Origin: a virus
Virus record (IMG/VR): IMGVR_UViG_3300032307_000117
Location: 1-64,000 of that record
Strand: one strand, 5' to 3'
Length of the DNA stretch: 64,000 nt
This document shows positions 26,050 through 36,410 of this stretch, one piece after another. The translations under genes were made by a program, and so were the position numbers. Position 1 is the stretch's first letter. Each line of letters starts with the position of its first letter. Under the pieces are notes generated by a model, which saw nothing but the letters and a program-made list of their open reading frames with translations, had not been told where the DNA came from and searched no databases.

Positions 26050-26687
26050 TATACCTCTTCCAGGCTAAGAGATATGTTCCAAAAGTCATAGTTGCTGCCA
26101 CCACGCTTAACAACCCCGTAAGAAAAGTCTGAAAAGAATACTTCGACAACTTCATTGTATTTCTGCAGGTTTGTGTATGAACCAGCATCTCTACCAAAAT
26201 TTGTGTGCTTGTCGTATGCAAGGTATACCCAGAAAGATCCACTGTGTTTTTCGTACCAGTCTAGAATCTCTACTCCACCAGCACCACCATCTGAAGTAAA
26301 TTCCTGAGTGTTGTTCTTGTAGTATTGAGATCTTCCCTCTTCATCAAATCCAGGATATGATGTGTACGATCTTGATGGCAACATATCCCAAGAAGCAGAA
26401 ATCTCTAGCTTGTCAGCAATATGATAGGACCTCATCCTACCATTTACCATTCGTTTCCTGTTTTCAATTCTGTTTACGTTAAAGCCAAGCTCTGCCCTAT
26501 TGTCGTCTGAAAGGATTAAGAATTGATCTAGATCTGATGCAGATGCACCCTCTGTTGTTTCTTGGTTAACCTCAAGACCGTTTGGCACATAGAAACCATC
26601 AATAATCGTTCCTGGATTGTCTGCAAATAGCAAGGCCTGTGGACGCTGATATCTTTTTCTACCAGACATGTATTCAAGGGTGGACAT
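26049..26687 (-). CDS. distal tail (Dit-like) protein
   Basis: Immediately follows the TMP; ends WNISLSLEEV. Confidence 0.65.
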   Translation of the reverse strand: MSTLEYMSGRKRYQRPQALLFADNPGTIIDGFYVPNGLEVNQETTEGASASDLDQFLILSDDNRAELGFNVNRIENRKRMVNGRMRSYHIADKLEISASWDMLPSRSYTSYPGFDEEGRSQYYKNNTQEFTSDGGAGGVEILDWYEKHSGSFWVYLAYDKHTNFGRDAGSYTNLQKYNEVVEVFFSDFSYGVVKRGGSNYDFWNISLSLEEV

Positions 26688-29600
26688 TAGAACCTATTAC
26701 CCCTGATTCTCTGAGAGTCAATTCTCTTAATCTGTGTCATTACATTCCTTGCAATTTGGTCTGCGTTAGCATCTGTTTGTACGTTTACGTTGATACTATA
26801 ATTATACACTGATTCGCCAGAATATGTTCCGTTATTTATTGCCTTCATATTATCTAGGCCAAAGTTCTCAACAGCATACTTTCTCATTACAAATTCGCCA
26901 GGTGTTAGCATTGCTGGGACAATGTCGGTTCCGCCCTTGGCAAACTTTACGTTGGCTAGGCCTCCACCCGCAAACATCTTGGCAACATAGCCACCCTGGT
27001 TAAACTTAGCTGCATTAACCTTGCCAACATTAGAAATCTTATTCCACTTCTTGCCATCCCACTTCCAGGTTGCATTTGGACCAACCCAAACCTCACCCTT
27101 CTTTTTCCCATCGTGATCTGGGCCTGGCCTTGTACCCTTAAATTCGGCATTTGGCTGGCCTGCAACTGGAGCCTGAGCCCCAGTGCCCTGACTTACCAGA
27201 GGAACGTCAACCTGCGTTTCTCCTGGAGTAGCATTTTTCCATGCAGTCTTTAAGCTTTCTACCATTGCGATTGCATTAGAAATTGATTCAGTATAGCGAG
27301 TACTTCCAATTCTAGAGTTCTCTATTTCGGATTCGATTTGTTGCCAAGCTAGTCTAGTCTTATCCAAAACAGTTACGGAATCTATAAGGGCTTGTTTCTC
27401 GATGTCTGCTAATCTAATTCTTTCTTGTGCTGGCTCCAGCCTCTTTTCCTCTATAGCAAAGATTTCATCTTGCAACTTTTTAATCTCATCTTCTAGCTGC
27501 TTTCTAGTTTTGCCATTAGAAGATACTAGGGTCGCTAGCTCTTTCTCCTTTGAAAGCTCTAGGGCCTTTTGCTGAGCGTCTATGCTTGTTTGAGCCTGAG
27601 TAGCACGAAGATCTTGGGCTGCCTTTGCAGCTGCAGCAATATCTCCTCTAGATAGTGCATCTGCTACGGTAAGCTGAGCTTTTTGCTGAGCTACTAGGTC
27701 TGAGTTTATTTCTTTTATCTCACTCAGGGCCTTGCTACGGTCAGCGTACTTCTTGTTAACCACATCTTCCTGGTCTGCAATTTCCTTTATTCCAGCCTGA
27801 AGGTCATCAATTGTAAACGATATCTTATCGATATCATTCTGTGCAGCATCAATAATCTTTAGATCTGGCTGAGTCTTTACTTCAAAGTCTAGCTCTATCT
27901 TTCTTTCTTTTACTGAGATTGCATTCATTGCAGCATTAAAGCCTTCGTCAAACAGACCCTGTAAGAACTCTGGATTAAGGATTTGCTTTACTCTAGCCTG
28001 AAGAAGCTTTTGATTTTTACCGCTCAGGAATAGCTCTGTGAGTGCTGAGTCGCTAAGAATTGCCTGTCTTTCTGCAAAGCTGTAAGAGCTCTTTTCAAGA
28101 GCGTTAGCAGCCTTAGCCAAGTTGTTTGCATCTTGTGCGGCTATCTGAACTGAGGCTACATTTTGGAATTCTTTTGTTGCAGCAGTTGCAGCCTTAGTAT
28201 CTGCAATTAGCTTAGTAAGTGCAGATTCACTTATCTGCTTTCCAGCAAGCGCAGCTGCTACTCCAGCATTTTCAACAGCGTTGTAGGCCTCTTCTAGAGA
28301 TAATCCTGCAGCTACTAGCCTGTTTACTGCAACAGTCTGGTCTTTTGTCTCTTGAATGGTTCTAGCCTGATTTAGCCCAAATTCACCAACTGCAATTCTA
28401 GCATAAGCGGCCTCTCTTCTCTTACCAGCCTTAGTAAGAATTGCTGTTCCATCTTTTCCTATTTGAACAAATTTCTTTCTAGCATCTTTGCCCATGCCCA
28501 TAAGCTCATCAGCAAATGCTTCTGAAATGCCAGCTTTTGCAAGTTTTTGTCCAAGTCCGTCGAACACGTTTAGCTTAGTTCCATCGATTACACGCTTTAG
28601 CTCTTTTAGTCCACCGTTTGCATTAATTGATGCATTAGTTAGGTTCTTTAGCTTTTTAAGTGTGTCATCAATCCAGGTTGTCTTTTTAGCTCCTGCACCA
28701 GTAGTTGTTGTCTCTCCCTCAGTGTTGGTTCCAGTACCACCATCAGTTTCAGATGGTTGACCAAGGAATGCAGCCATCCGCTGTTCTGCAGTAATTCTAG
28801 ACATTGCAGTTTCGCTTCTGATGTTTTTACCTGGGCCAACCGTGTAGTACCAAGCGTCAACGGCTGTCTGGTTGTATTTTCCAATTGCAAAGTCAACAAT
28901 TAACTCTGCATTCATTGTTTTCTTTCCACCAGACAAGACATCCCAATTTGCAAGAACTGATTCCAGGATTCCCTTTGATGGACCAGCTGGCATCGTAGAT
29001 ATGAAGTTTGTCAAGACTGTCTGAGTTACTTCCTTTGGAAGACCCTTTGTGTCCTTTACTAGATTTCCGATAACTTCAGTGTTTTCGGCAGTTATTTCAA
29101 CGCCTATACCATATTCACTCTGCATGCTGTTTAGTTCAGCAAGTGCCTTTAGGTTATAGTCTATGTCTGCTTTATCTTTAGTAACAAGGCTAAAGACGGC
29201 CTCGTACTCTTTACCTTCAACCCCTGCGGCATTTAGTAATTGAATTACCTGGTTTGAATCTGCAGTTCCAACTGCTTTTACCATTAGATTAAACTTAGAG
29301 CTGATATTGCCGTTAGATTCTTTATTAGCATTAATGAGGTTTGAAATAGTGACTGGATCAAATTCGCCGCTTGCCAAACCTATCTGAAGCGTTGTCTTAA
29401 AGTCTCCCTGCTCCAACCCAGCCAGCGAACTCTTCGCTAGATCAGCAGCTGCCTTCATGGCTCCAGTTGCATTTGCAAATCTTGAATCAATCGCCAAGTT
29501 TATTGAGTCTGTGAAGCCAGATCCCATTATTCTTGCTTGCTCTACTAGAGAATCAAATACCGCTGCATTTGCTGCTTTTTGTTTTGCCAGCCCAGCATTT

Positions 29601-32600
29601 CTTTCAGCAATCTTATCGCTAATCTGCTTCTCTATGGCAAGTCTTTCTTTTCTAGTTGTTGCAGCTTCTTTTTCTGCCTCAAGCTGGGATATCTGACCGT
29701 CGTACTGTCTTTCTAGAGAATCTAGCAATCCCTGGTTTTGTGCAATTTGTTCTGCACCAAGCTGTACGGCTACGCCACGAGCCTTGTTGTTTTCTTCCTG
29801 ATCTCCGAGTGCCTCTACTCCTAGGGTTGCACCAGCTGCAGCAACACCTCCAGAAATAAGTCCGATACCAAGAAGACCACCAATACCAGTTGCAGTTAGG
29901 GCTGCCCCAACGGCTGTCATAATTCCAGCACCGATTAGGTTGCCTACAGAACCACCAGATACCTCGGCATTCTTTTTCATTAATTCTATTGAGTTGTCAA
30001 AAGCCTTGTTTTGCTGTGCAAGAGAATCTTTTTGGATTGCCAAAGAAATTTCTATTGGATCTCCATTAAGAAGGTTCTCTCCGTTTGGACCAAAAAGCTG
30101 TGTTAACTTTCCACCGATGTTTGCGCTTATAGAATAGTCTCCGAGTTTTTCTGAAAGCCCAAACGCAATACTTCTAGCCTGTTGGTCAGTTATTGCACCC
30201 TGCATTATTGCATAAGAAAGTTGGCTAGCAATGCTTGAGGCAACTTCTGCACTGCTCATTCCAGATGTTGTCATTGCCTCTGCATCGGAAAGCAGCTTCT
30301 TTCCAGCCTGAGATTCTAAGAAGTTTTGTCCGAACTCTCTCTTCTTTGCACCTTGACCACTTAGCTGTTTTTCTCTTTGTCTTTCGGCAATTTGACTTGC
30401 TGTTACTTTTCCAGTAATCTCAGACATTTCGTTAAGCTTTTCGCTTGTCATTGCCATAGACTTACCAGCCTCTAGCCCAGCCTTAGTGGCATCTGATAGC
30501 TTAGTGGTTAGATAAATAATTCCTGCAGCTAAAGCCCCAACTGCAACTAGTGCCAAACCTATTTTATTTGCAATCATAGGAAGCATCATTAATGGTAGCG
30601 AGGCCATTCCAGCTAAGTCTGACGCTGGGCCTCCAGTCATGCTGTACATCATAGCAGCGGTACCAGCAAGCATGCCAACTCCGCCTACACGACCAGCCAT
30701 AGATCTCTTTCCTGCTGTGGCTGGTTCTGTTGGATCAAGATCGGCTGGGGCCGTTCCAGTTCCTGGAGCTCTAACTCCAGTAGCTGCTGCAATTGCTCTT
30801 CTAGCTGCATCGCCAAAGCCCTGCTTTAGATTGCCAGCAAGACCTCTTGATGACTTTTGGGTAAGCTCAACCTGAACTGGCTCAGCTGTATTTGGTAGCG
30901 TACCTCCAGGTGCCGTCTTTCCTTTTACGTATCCAGGTACGTTATCGGCAATCATAGAATTAATTAGTGGTGCATACTTCTTTGACATTTGAGCTGGTAT
31001 TACAGCTTCTCCTGGAGAAAGCATTGCTGGAACGATGTCCCCAGCACCCTTTGGGCCTGGAACAGACACTACGCCCTTATTAAAGGCAAAGCCTCTTCTT
31101 CTAAAGAATGCCTTAAAGAAATTAGTATTTGGAGACTTAGCATATTCAAGGTTTTCTTTAGATCCTGGGAACTGCTTAGCCAGTGGCCTCATTGGTATCC
31201 CAATTGGCTTTCTTTCCAGCCCCTTGCTCTTAAAGCCAGGAAGGTCTTTGTTTCTTATTTCGGCTGGTGAAGTTTGTGATCTTTTAAAGATGTACTGTAA
31301 ATCTTTAGTTCCTGCTGGCAAACGCTTTTTGGCTAAGTCATAAATTCTTTCCATACTTATGGCTTTGACACCTTTACTTTCTAAGTATCTGGCTGATGCT
31401 TCAGAATCTACTACCTTTGTTCCTTGCGGAAGATCGTCTAAAATTTTAGTGATGGTGTCATCAAACATCTTCGTCTGAGGAGCTAAAGCAGCTGGGTCTC
31501 CTCCGCCAAAAATAATAGAGCGATCCCATTTAGAAATGCCAGATCTTCTGAATTCTCTAAGTAATGCATCCTTGTCTGCTCCCTTTGCATACTTAATTGA
31601 CCCATCTGAATTTTGCCCTTCTGCCATTTGAGCATTTAGTCTTACTAGCTTTCCATCTGGCCCTATTTCTTTGTTTTCTATGTCAAAACCAAAGCCACTC
31701 TTTAGGTCTAACATTGTAGCATTTGGATCGGCAACTGTTTGCAAAGCTCTTTTTTGACTAGGAGAAAGCTTAAGTATTCCCTGATCAGATAGCCTTAATG
31801 CTTCTGCAGCAGATATTTTTGTTCCAGATCCGATATGAGCAAATTCTTTTTTAATTGAAAAAGCTTGTATGCCCATAGCTTCTCTGAAAGATTTCTTTAA
31901 GACTCCTGATCCTAGCTTAGTTCCACTCTGGTTTGCAGTTAAAATTAATGAGTCTATGGCTCTAAGAGTTTTTTGAGCACCTAGCTGTGTTTTTGATTCA
32001 TTTGCAGCATCGCTCATTATAGATGCAGCATCTTGGCTACCGATATTTGCCTGTGCTAATTTTGCAAGAATTTGTCTACCAATGTCAGCAGATCCTGCAG
32101 CATCAAACATGGCTAAGCTTGTTGGGACAGTTCTATAGCTTCTGCCACCACTATAGGTGTATCCTAGAAGCTCAGAATATTTCTTTTGCTGGGAGCCAGT
32201 TAGGTTAAGATCACGGAATACCGCTCTATCTTGGTCAGTAAGGGCTAGTGCTGCACCTATCGTTCCACTCATCAATCCCTGGAAAAGTCCAGACTGAGAA
32301 CCGCCTGGTACAGAGGCGATGCCCTTGCTATATCCTGGAACCCCAAGCTTTTTAAATAGCCTTGCTATAAAGCCAGGCCCTGTAACACGGATTGAGCCAA
32401 GACCTGCAGATTTTAATTCTGACTTGATCTGCTTTGCCATTGCTGGATTGCTAGCAATTACCTTTTCAATTTCGGCAAATCCAAATCCACCAGGAGTATA
32501 TGTTTCTACGTATGGAGATCTTGGATTAGTGGTGTACTGGTTCTTAGTTCCTGGAGTTAGGTTGCTGCCAAAGGGCATTCCCAGTCTTTCAAAAGAACTT

Positions 32601-35344
32601 AGTTGTCCAGCTGATGCGCCTCGCATTGGAGCAATCTGGAATGTGCCTCGGCCACCTGAGCTTTTTGCTCTATAGTAATCCATCAGGATATCACCAGGGT
32701 ATGCAGAAGACCTTCTTGCAACAGAACCCTTAGTTATAAGATCTATATCTCCATACATACCCAAAGATTTATCTGTTGGCTTTCTGGTAAGGGCATTAAA
32801 GTTTCTTCCCTTAATTCCAAACAGTGAATTAACTATTGACTGAAGAACAGAAGTTTTTGCATATCCGTATGTAGGCCTAGCAGATCCTGAAGTAGTCTTG
32901 GGATCTAGACCAAAAACATCGGACTCCATTTTTGCACGAAGCTTTTGCTGCTTTGGGTTTTGGCGACCATACTTTGTGAGGTAATCTGCCCCGCTTTGTG
33001 TGTCAAATGCGCTTTGATATCTTGCATTCTTTCCTTGTGACTGTAGAGCACTTATAAAGTTTCCTGAACCCATCCTTACAGCAACTCTGGATTTACCTAG
33101 CATCGATGCAAATGGATTTCGTCCAAAAGCAAAGCCAGGAACGTTGTCGGCAATAAGAGATGAAATAATTCCACTGTACTTTTGGGATTGTCTTGCAGGA
33201 ATAACTGCTTCTCCTGGTGAAAGCATGGCTGGCACAACATCTCCAGCCCCCTTAGGACCTGGAACAGAAAGAATTCCACGTGCATATCCTGGTATGCCAT
33301 CAATGGTTCCCTGTGGTGACTGAGCTCTTCTGCCTCCAGGAATTCTAGTTATTGGCGGTGCAATAGAAATTCTTTGATTTGCGGCAGCCGCATTCATTGC
33401 TAGCTGTGCTCTAGTTGCTGCCTGATAAACTCCAATTAGCTGAGTTAGGGCTGCTGCCTCAGAAGTGAAGGTTTGCTTAAGCATTGCATGAGATTGATTC
33501 AAAGATGCTGCTACGGCTGCTGCTTCCAGCTGCTCTTGGGTCATGTATTGGGTTGCAGATCCTAGCTCTGTAGAAGACCCAGACAATCTTTGATAGAATA
33601 ACCTTAAGGCATTAAATCCCTTTGCCAGGTTTGCAACACCGTTGGCAACTAGACCTATAGTCATAAGAGCCGCTGGCGCAATTAATCCCAATGTTGTAAT
33701 AAGTCCAGTTACAAAGGCTTTTCCGCCTTCGCTCATATTGTTAAACTGTTTTAGTAGCGATGTTCCAAAATCAATAATTGGTGTAACAAGCTTAATAAAC
33801 TGTTCTCCAAATGGGGCAAGAGATGCCTGAAGATCTTCCATTGCTTTCTTAAACTTGTAAGCTGGAGAATCCTCTAGTCTCTTTAATTCTCGCTCTGAAA
33901 GTATCGCAAGCTCTTCTGCGGTTGCCTTAGATAGCTGAAGAACACGGCTTGCCTGATTTCCTTGTCCAATTACGTTTTGAAATAGTGTTGAAATACGTGA
34001 AAATTGGAACTTACCGAATAGCTGCTCAATTGCTCTAGCACGGTTTAGAGGATCTAGCGTATCCAATGCATTAGCAAAATCAATGACTAGACCTTTTACG
34101 TCGCCCTTATTTGACTCTACAATATTTTTTACATTTATTCCAAATTGAGCCAGCATTTCTGCAGCTTTGCCAGTTGGATTAATTAAAGAGGCAAGACCAG
34201 ACTTAAGTGCGTTGGCACCTTCAGAGGCATTAATTCCACCTTCTTTCATGGCGGTTAGGAAAAATGCTAAGTCCTCGACGTCTCCACCCAGCTGTTGAAC
34301 TACTGGACCAGCTTTTGGAATGGCAATAGTTAAGTCTTCAATACTTACAACAGTTTGGTTTTCAACAGCGTTAAGAAAGTCTGTTTTTCTTGCAAGATCT
34401 TCGGTTGCAACACCAAAAGCACTAGTTAAAGATATTGTAGTTTTTAGTGCTTCTTGCTGTTCTACCCCACCCAAAACGGCAAGTCTTGTTGCCTCTGCAA
34501 CCTGAGCTGTTAATCCTGCGCCCATTTGACCCATTGCTGCAGCATCGGCTGCTAGCTCCATAGTCTTTTCTACGGCAACACCATATTTTGTAAACTCATT
34601 TGCAAGGTCTCTAATACCAGCCAAAGCCTTTTCTGTTTCAGCAGTGGTTGTAAACATTTCACCATAAACACGTCTAAAACGAATTGCCTGCTCTTCGAGC
34701 TTCATAAATGTCTTAGAGGCAACAGTCCCAAGCATTGTAAGAGGAATAGTAAAACCAACCATAAGCTGGCGACCAGCCCACTGAGTATTTTTACCCCAGT
34801 TTAAAAGATTTGTAGATCCTTGCTTTACAAGCTGATTGAATAGTTGCTGCTTCTGAGCAGTCATGGCTGTCTGGGTAGCCAAGTTATTCATATCTAGAAC
34901 AAGTGGTCTAACGTTAATTGCCTGAAGGGCACCGCTAGCATCACGACCCATCTTAATGTATTGGGTCTGAAGAGTCTTTACTCTTTCTCTAGATACCTTT
35001 TCAATTGTGTCAAACTCGGATCTGAATAGTCGTCCGAATGTTTTTGTAGATGCCCCAGCGTACCTAAAGTACTCTCCCATAGAGAGCTTGTTCTTTTCCA
35101 GGGCATTGGTAAAAGATTCTGTAGTGCTTTTTATTGTAGAAAGATTGGCAGAAAACTTGCCAGTAGCATTAATAGAGTCAACAAGACTCTTCTGCATGTT
35201 TCTGGACATAGCAGCATTAGCTGCATTTCCAGATGCTTGCATTTGTGTGTGAAAGGCCGAAATCTGACGCTGCAGATTTTTAATACTTGCCAGAGCTGAC
35301 GAAGTATCAATATCTATTCTAATATTGGCTTCAGAATCAGCCAT
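26687..35344 (-). CDS. tape measure protein with embedded globular cargo domains
   Basis: 2885 aa after the tail chaperones; TP901-like core (IPKAGPVVQQLGG...GANALKSGL), hydrophobic segments, coiled coils, repeated DxVPAMLxPGE motifs. Confidence 0.92.
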   Translation of the reverse strand: MADSEANIRIDIDTSSALASIKNLQRQISAFHTQMQASGNAANAAMSRNMQKSLVDSINATGKFSANLSTIKSTTESFTNALEKNKLSMGEYFRYAGASTKTFGRLFRSEFDTIEKVSRERVKTLQTQYIKMGRDASGALQAINVRPLVLDMNNLATQTAMTAQKQQLFNQLVKQGSTNLLNWGKNTQWAGRQLMVGFTIPLTMLGTVASKTFMKLEEQAIRFRRVYGEMFTTTAETEKALAGIRDLANEFTKYGVAVEKTMELAADAAAMGQMGAGLTAQVAEATRLAVLGGVEQQEALKTTISLTSAFGVATEDLARKTDFLNAVENQTVVSIEDLTIAIPKAGPVVQQLGGDVEDLAFFLTAMKEGGINASEGANALKSGLASLINPTGKAAEMLAQFGINVKNIVESNKGDVKGLVIDFANALDTLDPLNRARAIEQLFGKFQFSRISTLFQNVIGQGNQASRVLQLSKATAEELAILSERELKRLEDSPAYKFKKAMEDLQASLAPFGEQFIKLVTPIIDFGTSLLKQFNNMSEGGKAFVTGLITTLGLIAPAALMTIGLVANGVANLAKGFNALRLFYQRLSGSSTELGSATQYMTQEQLEAAAVAASLNQSHAMLKQTFTSEAAALTQLIGVYQAATRAQLAMNAAAANQRISIAPPITRIPGGRRAQSPQGTIDGIPGYARGILSVPGPKGAGDVVPAMLSPGEAVIPARQSQKYSGIISSLIADNVPGFAFGRNPFASMLGKSRVAVRMGSGNFISALQSQGKNARYQSAFDTQSGADYLTKYGRQNPKQQKLRAKMESDVFGLDPKTTSGSARPTYGYAKTSVLQSIVNSLFGIKGRNFNALTRKPTDKSLGMYGDIDLITKGSVARRSSAYPGDILMDYYRAKSSGGRGTFQIAPMRGASAGQLSSFERLGMPFGSNLTPGTKNQYTTNPRSPYVETYTPGGFGFAEIEKVIASNPAMAKQIKSELKSAGLGSIRVTGPGFIARLFKKLGVPGYSKGIASVPGGSQSGLFQGLMSGTIGAALALTDQDRAVFRDLNLTGSQQKKYSELLGYTYSGGRSYRTVPTSLAMFDAAGSADIGRQILAKLAQANIGSQDAASIMSDAANESKTQLGAQKTLRAIDSLILTANQSGTKLGSGVLKKSFREAMGIQAFSIKKEFAHIGSGTKISAAEALRLSDQGILKLSPSQKRALQTVADPNATMLDLKSGFGFDIENKEIGPDGKLVRLNAQMAEGQNSDGSIKYAKGADKDALLREFRRSGISKWDRSIIFGGGDPAALAPQTKMFDDTITKILDDLPQGTKVVDSEASARYLESKGVKAISMERIYDLAKKRLPAGTKDLQYIFKRSQTSPAEIRNKDLPGFKSKGLERKPIGIPMRPLAKQFPGSKENLEYAKSPNTNFFKAFFRRRGFAFNKGVVSVPGPKGAGDIVPAMLSPGEAVIPAQMSKKYAPLINSMIADNVPGYVKGKTAPGGTLPNTAEPVQVELTQKSSRGLAGNLKQGFGDAARRAIAAATGVRAPGTGTAPADLDPTEPATAGKRSMAGRVGGVGMLAGTAAMMYSMTGGPASDLAGMASLPLMMLPMIANKIGLALVAVGALAAGIIYLTTKLSDATKAGLEAGKSMAMTSEKLNEMSEITGKVTASQIAERQREKQLSGQGAKKREFGQNFLESQAGKKLLSDAEAMTTSGMSSAEVASSIASQLSYAIMQGAITDQQARSIAFGLSEKLGDYSISANIGGKLTQLFGPNGENLLNGDPIEISLAIQKDSLAQQNKAFDNSIELMKKNAEVSGGSVGNLIGAGIMTAVGAALTATGIGGLLGIGLISGGVAAAGATLGVEALGDQEENNKARGVAVQLGAEQIAQNQGLLDSLERQYDGQISQLEAEKEAATTRKERLAIEKQISDKIAERNAGLAKQKAANAAVFDSLVEQARIMGSGFTDSINLAIDSRFANATGAMKAAADLAKSSLAGLEQGDFKTTLQIGLASGEFDPVTISNLINANKESNGNISSKFNLMVKAVGTADSNQVIQLLNAAGVEGKEYEAVFSLVTKDKADIDYNLKALAELNSMQSEYGIGVEITAENTEVIGNLVKDTKGLPKEVTQTVLTNFISTMPAGPSKGILESVLANWDVLSGGKKTMNAELIVDFAIGKYNQTAVDAWYYTVGPGKNIRSETAMSRITAEQRMAAFLGQPSETDGGTGTNTEGETTTTGAGAKKTTWIDDTLKKLKNLTNASINANGGLKELKRVIDGTKLNVFDGLGQKLAKAGISEAFADELMGMGKDARKKFVQIGKDGTAILTKAGKRREAAYARIAVGEFGLNQARTIQETKDQTVAVNRLVAAGLSLEEAYNAVENAGVAAALAGKQISESALTKLIADTKAATAATKEFQNVASVQIAAQDANNLAKAANALEKSSYSFAERQAILSDSALTELFLSGKNQKLLQARVKQILNPEFLQGLFDEGFNAAMNAISVKERKIELDFEVKTQPDLKIIDAAQNDIDKISFTIDDLQAGIKEIADQEDVVNKKYADRSKALSEIKEINSDLVAQQKAQLTVADALSRGDIAAAAKAAQDLRATQAQTSIDAQQKALELSKEKELATLVSSNGKTRKQLEDEIKKLQDEIFAIEEKRLEPAQERIRLADIEKQALIDSVTVLDKTRLAWQQIESEIENSRIGSTRYTESISNAIAMVESLKTAWKNATPGETQVDVPLVSQGTGAQAPVAGQPNAEFKGTRPGPDHDGKKKGEVWVGPNATWKWDGKKWNKISNVGKVNAAKFNQGGYVAKMFAGGGLANVKFAKGGTDIVPAMLTPGEFVMRKYAVENFGLDNMKAINNGTYSGESVYNYSINVNVQTDANADQIARNVMTQIKRIDSQRIRGNRF
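30925..33290 (-). repeat. two ~55-codon repeat units within the TMP (about 33135-33290 and 30925-31093); partial copies near 32310-32345 and 26870-26945
   Basis: GILSVPGPKGAGDVVPAMLSPGEAVIPARQSQKYSGIISSLIADNVPGFAFG vs GVVSVPGPKGAGDIVPAMLSPGEAVIPAQMSKKYAPLINSMIADNVPGYVKG. Confidence 0.9.
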
Positions 35345-35367: not shown

Positions 35368-35688
35368 TTACTTAAGATTGTTTAGCAAAGCTGCATCTGT
35401 AAGATTAATTCCAGATGCCTCTTCTACAATCTTATACACAGTTGGAAGGTCTAGAAGCTCTTCCAAAGCTGCTGCATCAGCTGCCAACTCTGGCTTGTAC
35501 TGCTGCATAGCAATCTGTACACATTCCATCAGTAGGCTCATCGACTTCTCGTTGTCCTCTGCCACCTTTGCAATGCCCTCAAACTTGGACATGAATGGAC
35601 GCAGTAGAGAAATCTTTAGTGGGCGAACTGCCACCTTTGTTCCATCAATTAGTGTAATTGTCTTTTCTTCATTTACTGTTGTAGCCAT
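35368..35688 (-). CDS. tail assembly chaperone, short (G-like)
   Basis: Between major tail and TMP; paralogous to the N-half of 35715..36410. Confidence 0.75.
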   Translation of the reverse strand: MATTVNEEKTITLIDGTKVAVRPLKISLLRPFMSKFEGIAKVAEDNEKSMSLLMECVQIAMQQYKPELAADAAALEELLDLPTVYKIVEEASGINLTDAALLNNLK

Positions 35689-35713: not shown

Positions 35714-35722
35714 ATTATACCA
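35714..35722 (-). promoter_or_regulatory. extended -10 promoter for the short chaperone and TMP
   Basis: TGGTATAAT then GAGAGG SD. Confidence 0.6.
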
Positions 35723-36410
35723 CAGTTGCACTCTTTTTGTCTATCTTTTCATAGCTTAGCCCCATGCCAATGCCGAAGCCAGCCTTCTGGGCTCCTACCC
35801 CTTGCAGGGCGACAACGTCATTTGGATCCTTTGTGGTTCCACCACTAAAGACCTTTGCCTTCATCTGTTCCCATGCGTTAGAGCTCTTCTTGTTGTCTTT
35901 ATCTATGTCAACTCCCTGAATGGCAGCCAAAAACTTTTTTTCTTGATAGTCTAGCTCTCTTTTAGATTCTAGGGTGGCCATTAATTCTGGCATAGATAGC
36001 GATGACTCTAGTTGTTCATAGTCTTTCCAGATACCCAGCAAGAATGCCTCTGCCTCTAGCTTTGCCAGGTCAAGGGTTTCCCATGTAGAACCACTCTCTA
36101 CGGCCTGGTCTTTAACAGTTTCTTCAGAATCTGGCTTTACCTTGATTCCAGCGGCTACCTCTATGATCTTATAAATAGTGTGAATATCGGCATTGTCTTC
36201 TAGGTCAAACCTGTCTGGGGTATATTGCTTCATAGCTATTTTTGCACATTCCGTCAAAAATAAAACAGCTTGACTGTCATTACTTGCATTTTTTACAAAC
36301 TCAAACAGCTCCATAAATTCTCTAAGATATTTAATCTTTAGTGGAGTTAGGCTAACTTCCGTGCCGTCCATAAGAGTTATGCTCTCAACGTCATATATTT
36401 TAGTAGCCAT
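35715..36410 (-). CDS. tail assembly chaperone, long (GT-like, in frame)
   Basis: G-like N-half plus a C-half (WKDYEQLESSLSMPEL) resembling a T moiety. Confidence 0.7.
   Translation of the reverse strand: MATKIYDVESITLMDGTEVSLTPLKIKYLREFMELFEFVKNASNDSQAVLFLTECAKIAMKQYTPDRFDLEDNADIHTIYKIIEVAAGIKVKPDSEETVKDQAVESGSTWETLDLAKLEAEAFLLGIWKDYEQLESSLSMPELMATLESKRELDYQEKKFLAAIQGVDIDKDNKKSSNAWEQMKAKVFSGGTTKDPNDVVALQGVGAQKAGFGIGMGLSYEKIDKKSATVV

Follow-up and report, generated by a model that had tools for sequence, protein, structure and literature searches.

The window analysed here is a stretch of 64,000 nucleotides (positions 1 to 64,000) from the IMG/VR virus record IMGVR_UViG_3300032307_000117, a record of 75.9 kb with an estimated completeness of 70%. 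Its central feature is the gene for the tape measure protein (TMP), P0001, whose product carries an unusual block about a quarter of the way along its length. Between homologous copies of a module of about 55 amino acids (aa) lie a domain with the predicted fold of an ADP-ribosyltransferase (ART) and an orphan domain, and the orphan domain occupies a slot whose content is replaced between relatives. A preliminary description of this DNA had regarded the block as a set of exchangeable, motif-delimited payloads delivered with the TMP. The features of the gene are as follows:

26687..35344, minus strand: TMP gene P0001, a single open reading frame (ORF) of 2,885 aa
33689..34726, minus strand: TP901-type TMP core region, aa 207–552 (TIGR01760 and PF10145)
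33632..33718, minus strand: hydrophobic segment upstream of the cargo, aa 543–571 (Kyte-Doolittle mean 2.08 over 19 residues)
33110..33289, minus strand: module R1, aa 686–745 (core 689–742; hidden Markov model (HMM) built from the repeats, E 5.7e-32)
32345..33118, minus strand: cargo domain 1, ART fold, aa 743–1000 (AlphaFold2 model with predicted local distance difference test score (pLDDT) 89.6 and predicted template-modelling score 0.85)
32300..32347, minus strand: half module, aa 1000–1015, GVPGYSKGIASVPGG, left edge of the variable slot
31079..32302, minus strand: cargo domain 2, aa 1015–1422 (AlphaFold2 pLDDT 83.9), in the variable slot
30908..31087, minus strand: module R2, aa 1420–1479 (core 1423–1476; repeat HMM E 1.7e-31), right edge of the variable slot
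30494..30598, minus strand: hydrophobic segment downstream of the cargo, aa 1583–1617 (Kyte-Doolittle mean 2.26)
29816..29938, minus strand: Gly-rich hydrophobic segment, aa 1803–1843 (Kyte-Doolittle means 1.7–1.8)
26798..26977, minus strand: terminal module R3, aa 2790–2849 (about 2794–2843; HMM E 1.8e-6, 78 bits with a widened model)
26690..26809, minus strand: C-terminal ~40 aa, probable hub-binding plug (majority identity 0.75 across relatives)

The sequence identifies P0001 as the TP901-family TMP of an uncultured siphophage. PF10145 matches aa 246–444 (E 1e-23, 84.7 bits against a cut-off of 33.2), TIGR01760 matches aa 207–552 (E 3.8e-26, 91.9 bits against a cut-off of 28.8), and PHROG tape-measure families align to aa 8–666; an NCBIfam scan of the protein matched the TMP core alone. 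This core is about 30% identical to the TMPs of Streptomyces and Gordonia siphophages (about 31% for Muntaha). The first 745 aa resemble a complete small TMP, with a TP901 core, a hydrophobic segment, a helical stretch and module R1. R2 is followed by two hydrophobic regions, a helical ruler of about 950 aa, the terminal module and the plug. By position, the C-terminal ~40 aa equal the resolved TMP C termini of Douge (aa 1658–1699), lambda (818–849) and T5 (last 35 aa) (PMC13033339, PMC12617516, PMC10038345), and they probably bind the tail hub. The hydrophobic segments, called from Kyte-Doolittle means alone, bracket the block at aa 543–571 and 1583–1617, as the preliminary description had stated.

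The protein holds three copies of the module (R1, R2 and the terminal R3) and one half module. The motif VPAML(S/T)PGE stands at aa 704, 1438 and 2809 (nucleotides 33235, 31033 and 26920), the last being the recurrence at the normal C-terminal position that had been placed near 26900, and PG[YF]xxG stands at aa 685, 736, 1003 and 1470. The repeat matches of all three copies are far beyond chance, so the ~55-aa repeats first noticed by eye are real. Their description as near-identical holds for the protein core, where the run from SVPGPKGAGD to PGEAVIPA is almost the same in R1 and R2, but not for the whole module, in which 38 of 60 residues are identical, nor for the DNA, which is 62% identical. 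The stretch between R1 and R2 measures 680 aa (about 700 had been given), and the half repeat said to split it is present. The range first assigned to the block, 31100–33290, takes in R1 and the cargo and ends shortly before R2.

Among the 38 codons of residues shared by R1 and R2, 19 differ synonymously. With a DNA identity of 62%, this argues that the duplication is old and has been retained by selection on the protein, and that the two copies do not serve as substrate for homologous recombination inside this genome. That R1 and R2 were duplicated recently or homogenised by gene conversion was considered and rejected, the DNA being only 62% identical and synonymous sites saturated. The half module GVPGYSKGIASVPGG matches the lead-in of a full module that stands at the same place in the relatives P0037, P0062 and P0071, which makes it a truncated joint. 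A Pfam scan of the three modules (hmmscan to E 10) found no family. A complex prediction with three copies of the module scored 0.03, and the predicted fold of the module itself is uncertain, so that this result speaks neither for nor against oligomerisation.

Cargo domain 1 is an ART by fold only. The best structural match of its model is SopF (7dn8; Foldseek E 1e-6; VIA Z 11.5, root-mean-square deviation 3.4 over 179 residues), followed by DarT structures (Z 9–10.6, with 7yk3 at Z 10.6) and Tpt1 (Z 7.7), and then by CteC, CopC/OspC3 and classical toxins. The top ~30 matches are all ARTs or NAD-using relatives, and the model has the split beta-sheet of the ART fold. Sequence searches were empty: hmmscan against Pfam, run to E 10, yielded no family, no PDB sequence matched a profile built from 13 homologues, and a search of the record with PF12294 (DUF3626), the family to which SopF belongs (PMC6682159), gave no match, nor did its controls. 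The assignment therefore lies in the fold. Across 13–30 homologues of 25–77% identity, R15, Y34, R61, E65, R81, P82, Y84, G85, Y122, G123, D143 and E205 (domain numbering) are invariant. In the model R15 lies on strand 1, Y84 and G85 follow on the next strand of the core, and E205 opens a later strand; R15, Y84 and E205 are candidate catalytic residues, in the strand order expected of an ART active site. The predicted enzyme fold is one typical of injected effectors.

Cargo domain 2 has a folded part at about aa 1036–1375 (~340 residues), followed by a basic disordered linker. Its model comprises a helical subdomain and an alpha/beta subdomain; together with the model of domain 1 (pLDDT 89.6 and 83.9) it bears out the claim that the insert is globular and unlike a TMP. 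The residues H135, G139, G184, N202, G234 and D278 (A3 numbering) are invariant, and the polar ones among them (H135, N202 and D278) suggest that domain 2 is also an enzyme. No fold was recognised with the whole model as query, the alpha/beta half not having been run separately: Foldseek against the PDB gave no convincing match (best E 0.48), a wide VIA search reached Z 6.8 on the helical subdomain only, and the BFVD structure search gave nothing convincing. A Pfam scan to E 10 found no family for domain 2, and the ESM Atlas no usable match.

The cargo is restricted in its distribution. A search with the region retrieved 1,231 proteins, nearly all of them TMPs of 2,000–3,760 aa on contigs of 10–125 kb, and an exhaustive search of 1.84 billion representatives found only 52 clusters that match the cargo, again nearly all giant TMPs; most of the matches to the cargo cover the ART part only. 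The cargo region has no relative among INPHARED phages by blastn or tblastn, and single-sequence searches of viral contigs with domain 1 or domain 2 found none either, an alignment being needed as query. Conservation was expressed as majority-residue identity across 29 aligned TMPs:

R1: 0.84
TP901 core: 0.82
last 45 aa: 0.75
R2: 0.68
ART domain: 0.61
ruler: 0.41–0.44
variable slot (half module to R2): no column common to 80% of sequences

R1 is thus as conserved as the TMP core (0.84 vs 0.82), and among these 29 relatives the expected pattern of conserved repeats around varying content is found, in so far as the slot is concerned.

Pairwise comparisons locate the replacement of cargo at the modules. 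P0001 and P0010 align over aa 3–1008 (66%) and 1421–2885 (40%) only, and the gap between these stretches is exactly the slot from the half module to R2. Between P0003 and P0040 the flanks are 88% and 75% identical and aa 1020–1479 are replaced; between P0085 and P0089 the flanks are 93% and 89% identical and aa 985–1354 are replaced. P0071 and P0078 share 91%, and their C-terminal cassette is replaced. Cargo replacement between relatives starts and ends at modules (the half module and R2), and what stands in the slot is not merely lost but replaced by other folded-looking domains. Alignment thus supports exchangeable cargo for one part of the block: the slot at aa 1015–1422 is swapped, whereas the ART domain is conserved in this clade and not exchangeable. 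The proposal that the repeats are recombination boundaries stands in the same restricted form. The breakpoints do fall at the half repeat and R2, but the repeats are not recombinogenic DNA within this genome (62% identity, 19 of 38 conserved codons differing synonymously).

Two contigs carry chimeric first modules (L007:9812-9988 and L010:4247-4423). Their first half is of the 'GPGTGTSDSIPAMLSNGE' (B) type and their second half of the internal 'AVIPAKQ..KY' (A) type, as if a crossover had taken place at GE; such a pattern is what crossovers within the module would be expected to leave.

Layouts were counted approximately in 120 retrieved proteins; the greedy domain families used for them (D3–D24) are rough and served this purpose only. 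The arrangement module–ART–[~400 aa]–module occurs in about 35 proteins, module–ART–module in about 25, and module–[~400 aa]–ART–module in seven. The ART always adjoins a module in the retrieved relatives. A second cassette site, module–[300–850 aa]–module just before the plug, is present in 15 of the 120, four of which have a second ART at that site. P0117 has four internal modules and three cassettes, and P0055 has a decayed second module with a PGEVVL remnant. In P0037, P0036, P0064 and P0031 the C-terminal cassette contains a diverged paralogue of the ART that immediately precedes the last module, so these TMPs carry two ART-fold domains. Some relatives have LysM or PG_binding_1 near the C terminus. 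Pfam scanning of 20 slot segments of relatives gave only HAD, SLT and Gly-zipper matches.

Other payloads are mounted in the same way. A 3,160-aa TMP (L019:5387-14866) on an 85-kb contig from a bin labelled Bifidobacterium has modules at aa 670–729 and 1540–1597. Between them lie an HAD IIIB acid phosphatase (PF03767, E 4e-16, with a DxDxT motif) and a kinase-like domain, and no ART. The nearest named Atlas clusters of the kinase-like domain are HipA_2, PI3_PI4_kinase and LepB_N at 0.87–0.88 (below 0.9), a search against PDB sequences gave no match, and its identity is a lead only. In a Streptomyces prophage TMP, an SLT domain follows the module. Module–payload–module appears to be a general way to mount enzymes on TMPs.

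The module itself is widespread. Of 78 TMP-like frames from prophages and contigs of metagenome-assembled genomes (MAGs) in many phyla, 68 hold a single module, which in most of the 78 ends 35–75 aa before the C terminus; R3 of P0001 ends 36 aa before it. Ordinary TMPs of 650–1000 aa end in a module. It is also found in the TMPs of cultured Gordonia, Clavibacter, Stenotrophomonas, Nitrincola and Rhodococcus phages, and twice inside the TMP of mycobacteriophage Douge (profile E 1.6e-8), where the module region is not resolved in the map (PMC13033339). The prophage frames, the cultured phages, Douge and the TMP of Muntaha (described below) make the module an ordinary penultimate TMP element. R1, R2 and R3 are, on sequence grounds, homologous copies of this element, and the pattern of substitution indicates that they are kept by selection on the protein.

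Several further occurrences were recorded. The terminal-type module matches proteins of T4-like cyanophages (P-TIM68, S-SM2, S-SCSM1 and Bellamy; records H34–H47) annotated as hypothetical, transmembrane or lysozyme; the module is therefore not confined to siphophage TMPs. The 2,088-aa TMP of the cultured Streptomyces phage Muntaha (L016, NC_070786, 9154-15420) contains, just before the plug, a pair of degenerate modules that enclose transglycosylase-like and M23 peptidase (HLHFE) sequences. In a Balneolaceae MAG (L086:6953-10525), modules at aa 948–1001 and 1011–1065 stand in tandem, 10 residues apart and without cargo, which could be an empty socket.

The genomic setting is that of a siphophage tail cluster. 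Upstream of P0001 lie paralogous small chaperone-like ORFs (phrog_10504), a tail protein with an immunoglobulin domain (phrog_2175) and a capsid protein; downstream are a 212-aa protein and then a 1,545-aa minor tail protein. The position of the TMP between tail chaperone genes and distal or minor tail genes is the siphophage order. Gene order around P0001 is the same as in Muntaha, and the neighbouring genes match. The two adjacent chaperone-like ORFs upstream of the TMP, at 35368-35688 (106 aa) and 35715-36410 (231 aa), both on the minus strand, match phrog_10504 across their first ~100 residues. The tail chaperone pair may therefore consist of two paralogous genes, not of a frameshift.

We read P0001 as a composite TMP, a helical ruler combined with enzyme payloads that would leave the tail with the TMP at infection, and give this reading slightly better than an even chance. 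An ART-fold enzyme and a second domain swapped at motifs mean that preformed enzymes are probably brought into the host by the tail. In model phages the TMP is present in 3 or 6 copies per virion. The TMP would be expelled before the DNA; the block flanked by the two hydrophobic regions would come to lie on the cytoplasmic side, where NAD+ is present; and the payload enzymes might then act at the entry site on host or defence targets, prior to any phage gene expression. Injection of the cargo is suggested by analogy with T5, lambda and P23-45. P23-45 gp96 shows that a TMP can carry an enzyme acting in the cytoplasm (PMC10770324). That host defences operate where the TMP enters is shown by SNIPE, a membrane nuclease found in association with the TMP of lambda (PMC13190303).

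Each module may also mark a maturation cleavage, and such cuts would free the payloads; cleavage at each module of P0001 is plausible by analogy with T5 pb2 and lambda gpH. T5 pb2 is cut after R1127 into pb2* and pb2C, which parts the enzymatic portion from the rest (PMC10038345), and the residues directly after the cut, AEGGMMYPGVSYQMGEHGTEVV, form a Gly-rich motif. Lambda gpH is cut in a Gly-rich region near residue 690–720 into gpH* and gpHC, by a mechanism and at a site that are unknown (PMC12617516). Just after this cleavage zone, at about aa 735–790, lies a look-alike of the module, which ends ~63 aa from the C terminus; by eye it consists of an aromatic-x-x-GG lead-in, PA, GE[FY]V and then a helix. 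The module HMM reaches 754–785 of gpH with a weak 5.7 bits and has no statistical match in T5 pb2, so the analogy with T5 is positional only. Tape_meas_lam_C is presumably the Pfam family of the lambda gpH-type C-terminal module; no Pfam family matched the modules of P0001. A bolder form of this idea takes the module as a portable maturation signal, cut in its Gly-rich lead-in wherever present. On this view giant TMPs would be polyproteins and would fill the tail lumen with exchangeable enzymes in free form (ART, kinase-like, phosphatase and orphan folds), and the cleavage of lambda gpH would have both its site and its determinant in this same module. This extension is rather unlikely as it stands.

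Other accounts of the modules and of the inserts give different weight to the same observations. The modules might be structural or assembly elements instead of cleavage signals, docking in the lumen of the tube or hub or restoring the register of the TMP bundle beside a bulky insert. The cargo would then stay tethered to the TMP channel and act, if at all, at the membrane, and exchange at modules would happen simply because these are conserved, foldable joints. A module that is an ordinary penultimate TMP element across many phyla, and that also occurs in the TMPs of cultured phages, in certain proteins of T4-like cyanophages and twice internally in Douge, fits this account, as does strong protein-level conservation, which suits a role in binding or folding; the hydrophobic segments on both sides would tether an uncleaved block. 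No partner or structure is known for such a role, however, the region being unresolved in lambda and Douge (PMC12617516, PMC13033339), and the TMP cleavages mapped in T5 and bounded in lambda fall just upstream of the equivalent motif. A structural role is a real possibility, though a minority one. A role of the inserts in penetrating the envelope or building a channel, as with the peptidoglycan hydrolases of TMPs, and not in host manipulation, has precedent, since embedded muralytic domains are a known kind of TMP insert (TM4, PMC1796659; T5, PMC10038345). Among the relatives, Muntaha has its transglycosylase-like and M23 sequences, the Streptomyces prophage its SLT domain, and some giant TMPs LysM or PG_binding_1. 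Domain 1, however, matches only NAD-dependent ARTs, NAD+ is cytoplasmic, the Pfam scan found no muralytic family in the P0001 cargo, and the HAD phosphatase and kinase-like payloads of the same slot are not wall-degrading types, all of which makes this account improbable for P0001.

It has also to be asked whether two or more TMP genes, each with a module of its own at its end, were joined end to end and the internal modules are what remains of this fusion, with linker-like or decaying sequence of no function between them. Residues 1–745 do look like a complete small TMP that ends in a module, as ordinary TMPs of 650–1000 aa do, and some lineages have a decayed second module (P0055, PGEVVL). 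Yet the internal modules are conserved at 0.84 and 0.68 against 0.41–0.44 for the ruler, the two cargo domains are modelled confidently as compact folds and keep invariant polar residues, and the content of the slot is replaced by other folded-looking domains, not simply lost. A functionless relic is accordingly the least credible of these accounts and very hard to maintain.

Several points weigh against the composite, payload-carrying TMP. Domain 1 is without a sequence-level link to any ART family, whether through Pfam, PF12294 or the PDB profile. The tie of the module to lambda and T5 is one of pattern and position only (5.7 bits in lambda, no HMM match in T5, no Pfam family). Folded domains of about 28–45 kDa in 3–6 copies must fit a tube lumen of ~4 nm or stay unfolded. 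The sample of relatives was seeded with the query's own cargo, which inflates the apparent universality of the ART, and the closest module-bearing contigs from genome collections, L019 included, are without it; the near-universality of the ART is therefore partly an effect of sampling. These closest contigs come from MAG bins labelled Methylococcus, Flavobacterium and Bifidobacterium and are probably mis-binned phage. Finally, in about 31 of the 120 proteins (module–ART) no strong second module follows the cargo; bracketing is therefore not obligatory.

If the composite reading is right, a TMP socket for swappable enzymes would represent a large, unexplored reservoir of first-strike effectors, many of them without a known fold. 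Phage proteins that are in the cell before phage expression are prime candidates to disarm defences acting at entry, such as SNIPE. A TMP of this kind would also be a natural scaffold for protein delivery by phage tails, and comparison of the modules offers a concrete candidate determinant of lambda TMP cleavage.

Known systems resemble P0001 in different respects. The two best structural matches of domain 1 are toxins or effectors: SopF, a Salmonella type III secretion effector of Pfam DUF3626 (7DN8/7DN9; Z 11.5), and DarT, a DNA ADP-ribosyltransferase toxin (7YK3, 7OMY; Z 10.6), are alike in fold and align over 176–182 residues, yet share 10–18% sequence identity with it, and domain 1 would be delivered through a phage tail. 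Ready-made enzymes or effectors brought in by an injection machine are a logic shared with T4 Alt and with Sle1-type effectors. T4 Alt, a virion-packaged injected enzyme, is a protein of its own and is carried in the head. Sle1-type effectors are built on a platform related to TMPs that bears diverse functional domains (PMC13277306); Sle1 is part of a contractile injection system and not of a phage TMP. Neither of the two surrounds its cargo with repeated gpH-type modules.

Closer parallels are found among TMPs themselves. A peptidoglycan-hydrolase motif is embedded in the TMP of mycobacteriophage TM4 (PMC1796659), and like P0001 both TM4 and Muntaha have enzyme domains inside the TMP, those of Muntaha between two degenerate copies of the same module. 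Their payloads act on the cell wall, whereas the P0001 cargo has the predicted fold of an NAD-dependent transferase and, unlike theirs, is placed a quarter of the way along the protein between hydrophobic segments. Tail maturation in T5 and lambda includes a cut of pb2 and gpH, respectively, just upstream of a Gly-rich lead-in and a GE motif near the C terminus; each has a single cut, near the C terminus, and the T5 payload is muralytic while lambda has none.

Thermus phage P23-45 gp96, a TMP fused to the virion RNA polymerase that transcribes pre-early genes (PMC10770324), is the only published non-muralytic enzyme on a TMP found in the literature, and the same search found no description of ARTs or of module-bracketed, exchangeable cassettes in TMPs. 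Both gp96 and P0001 are giant TMPs with an enzyme in the same polypeptide, in P0001 an ART-fold domain in frame. The gp96 enzyme acts in the cytoplasm and works before phage gene expression, and its activity and role have been demonstrated experimentally. It is a single N-terminal RNA polymerase, whereas P0001 has an internal, module-bracketed arrangement of an ART fold and an exchangeable orphan domain that is known from sequence and models. The architecture of P0001 thus appears to extend kinds already described: enzyme-bearing TMPs, proteolytically matured TMPs and the P23-45 fusion.

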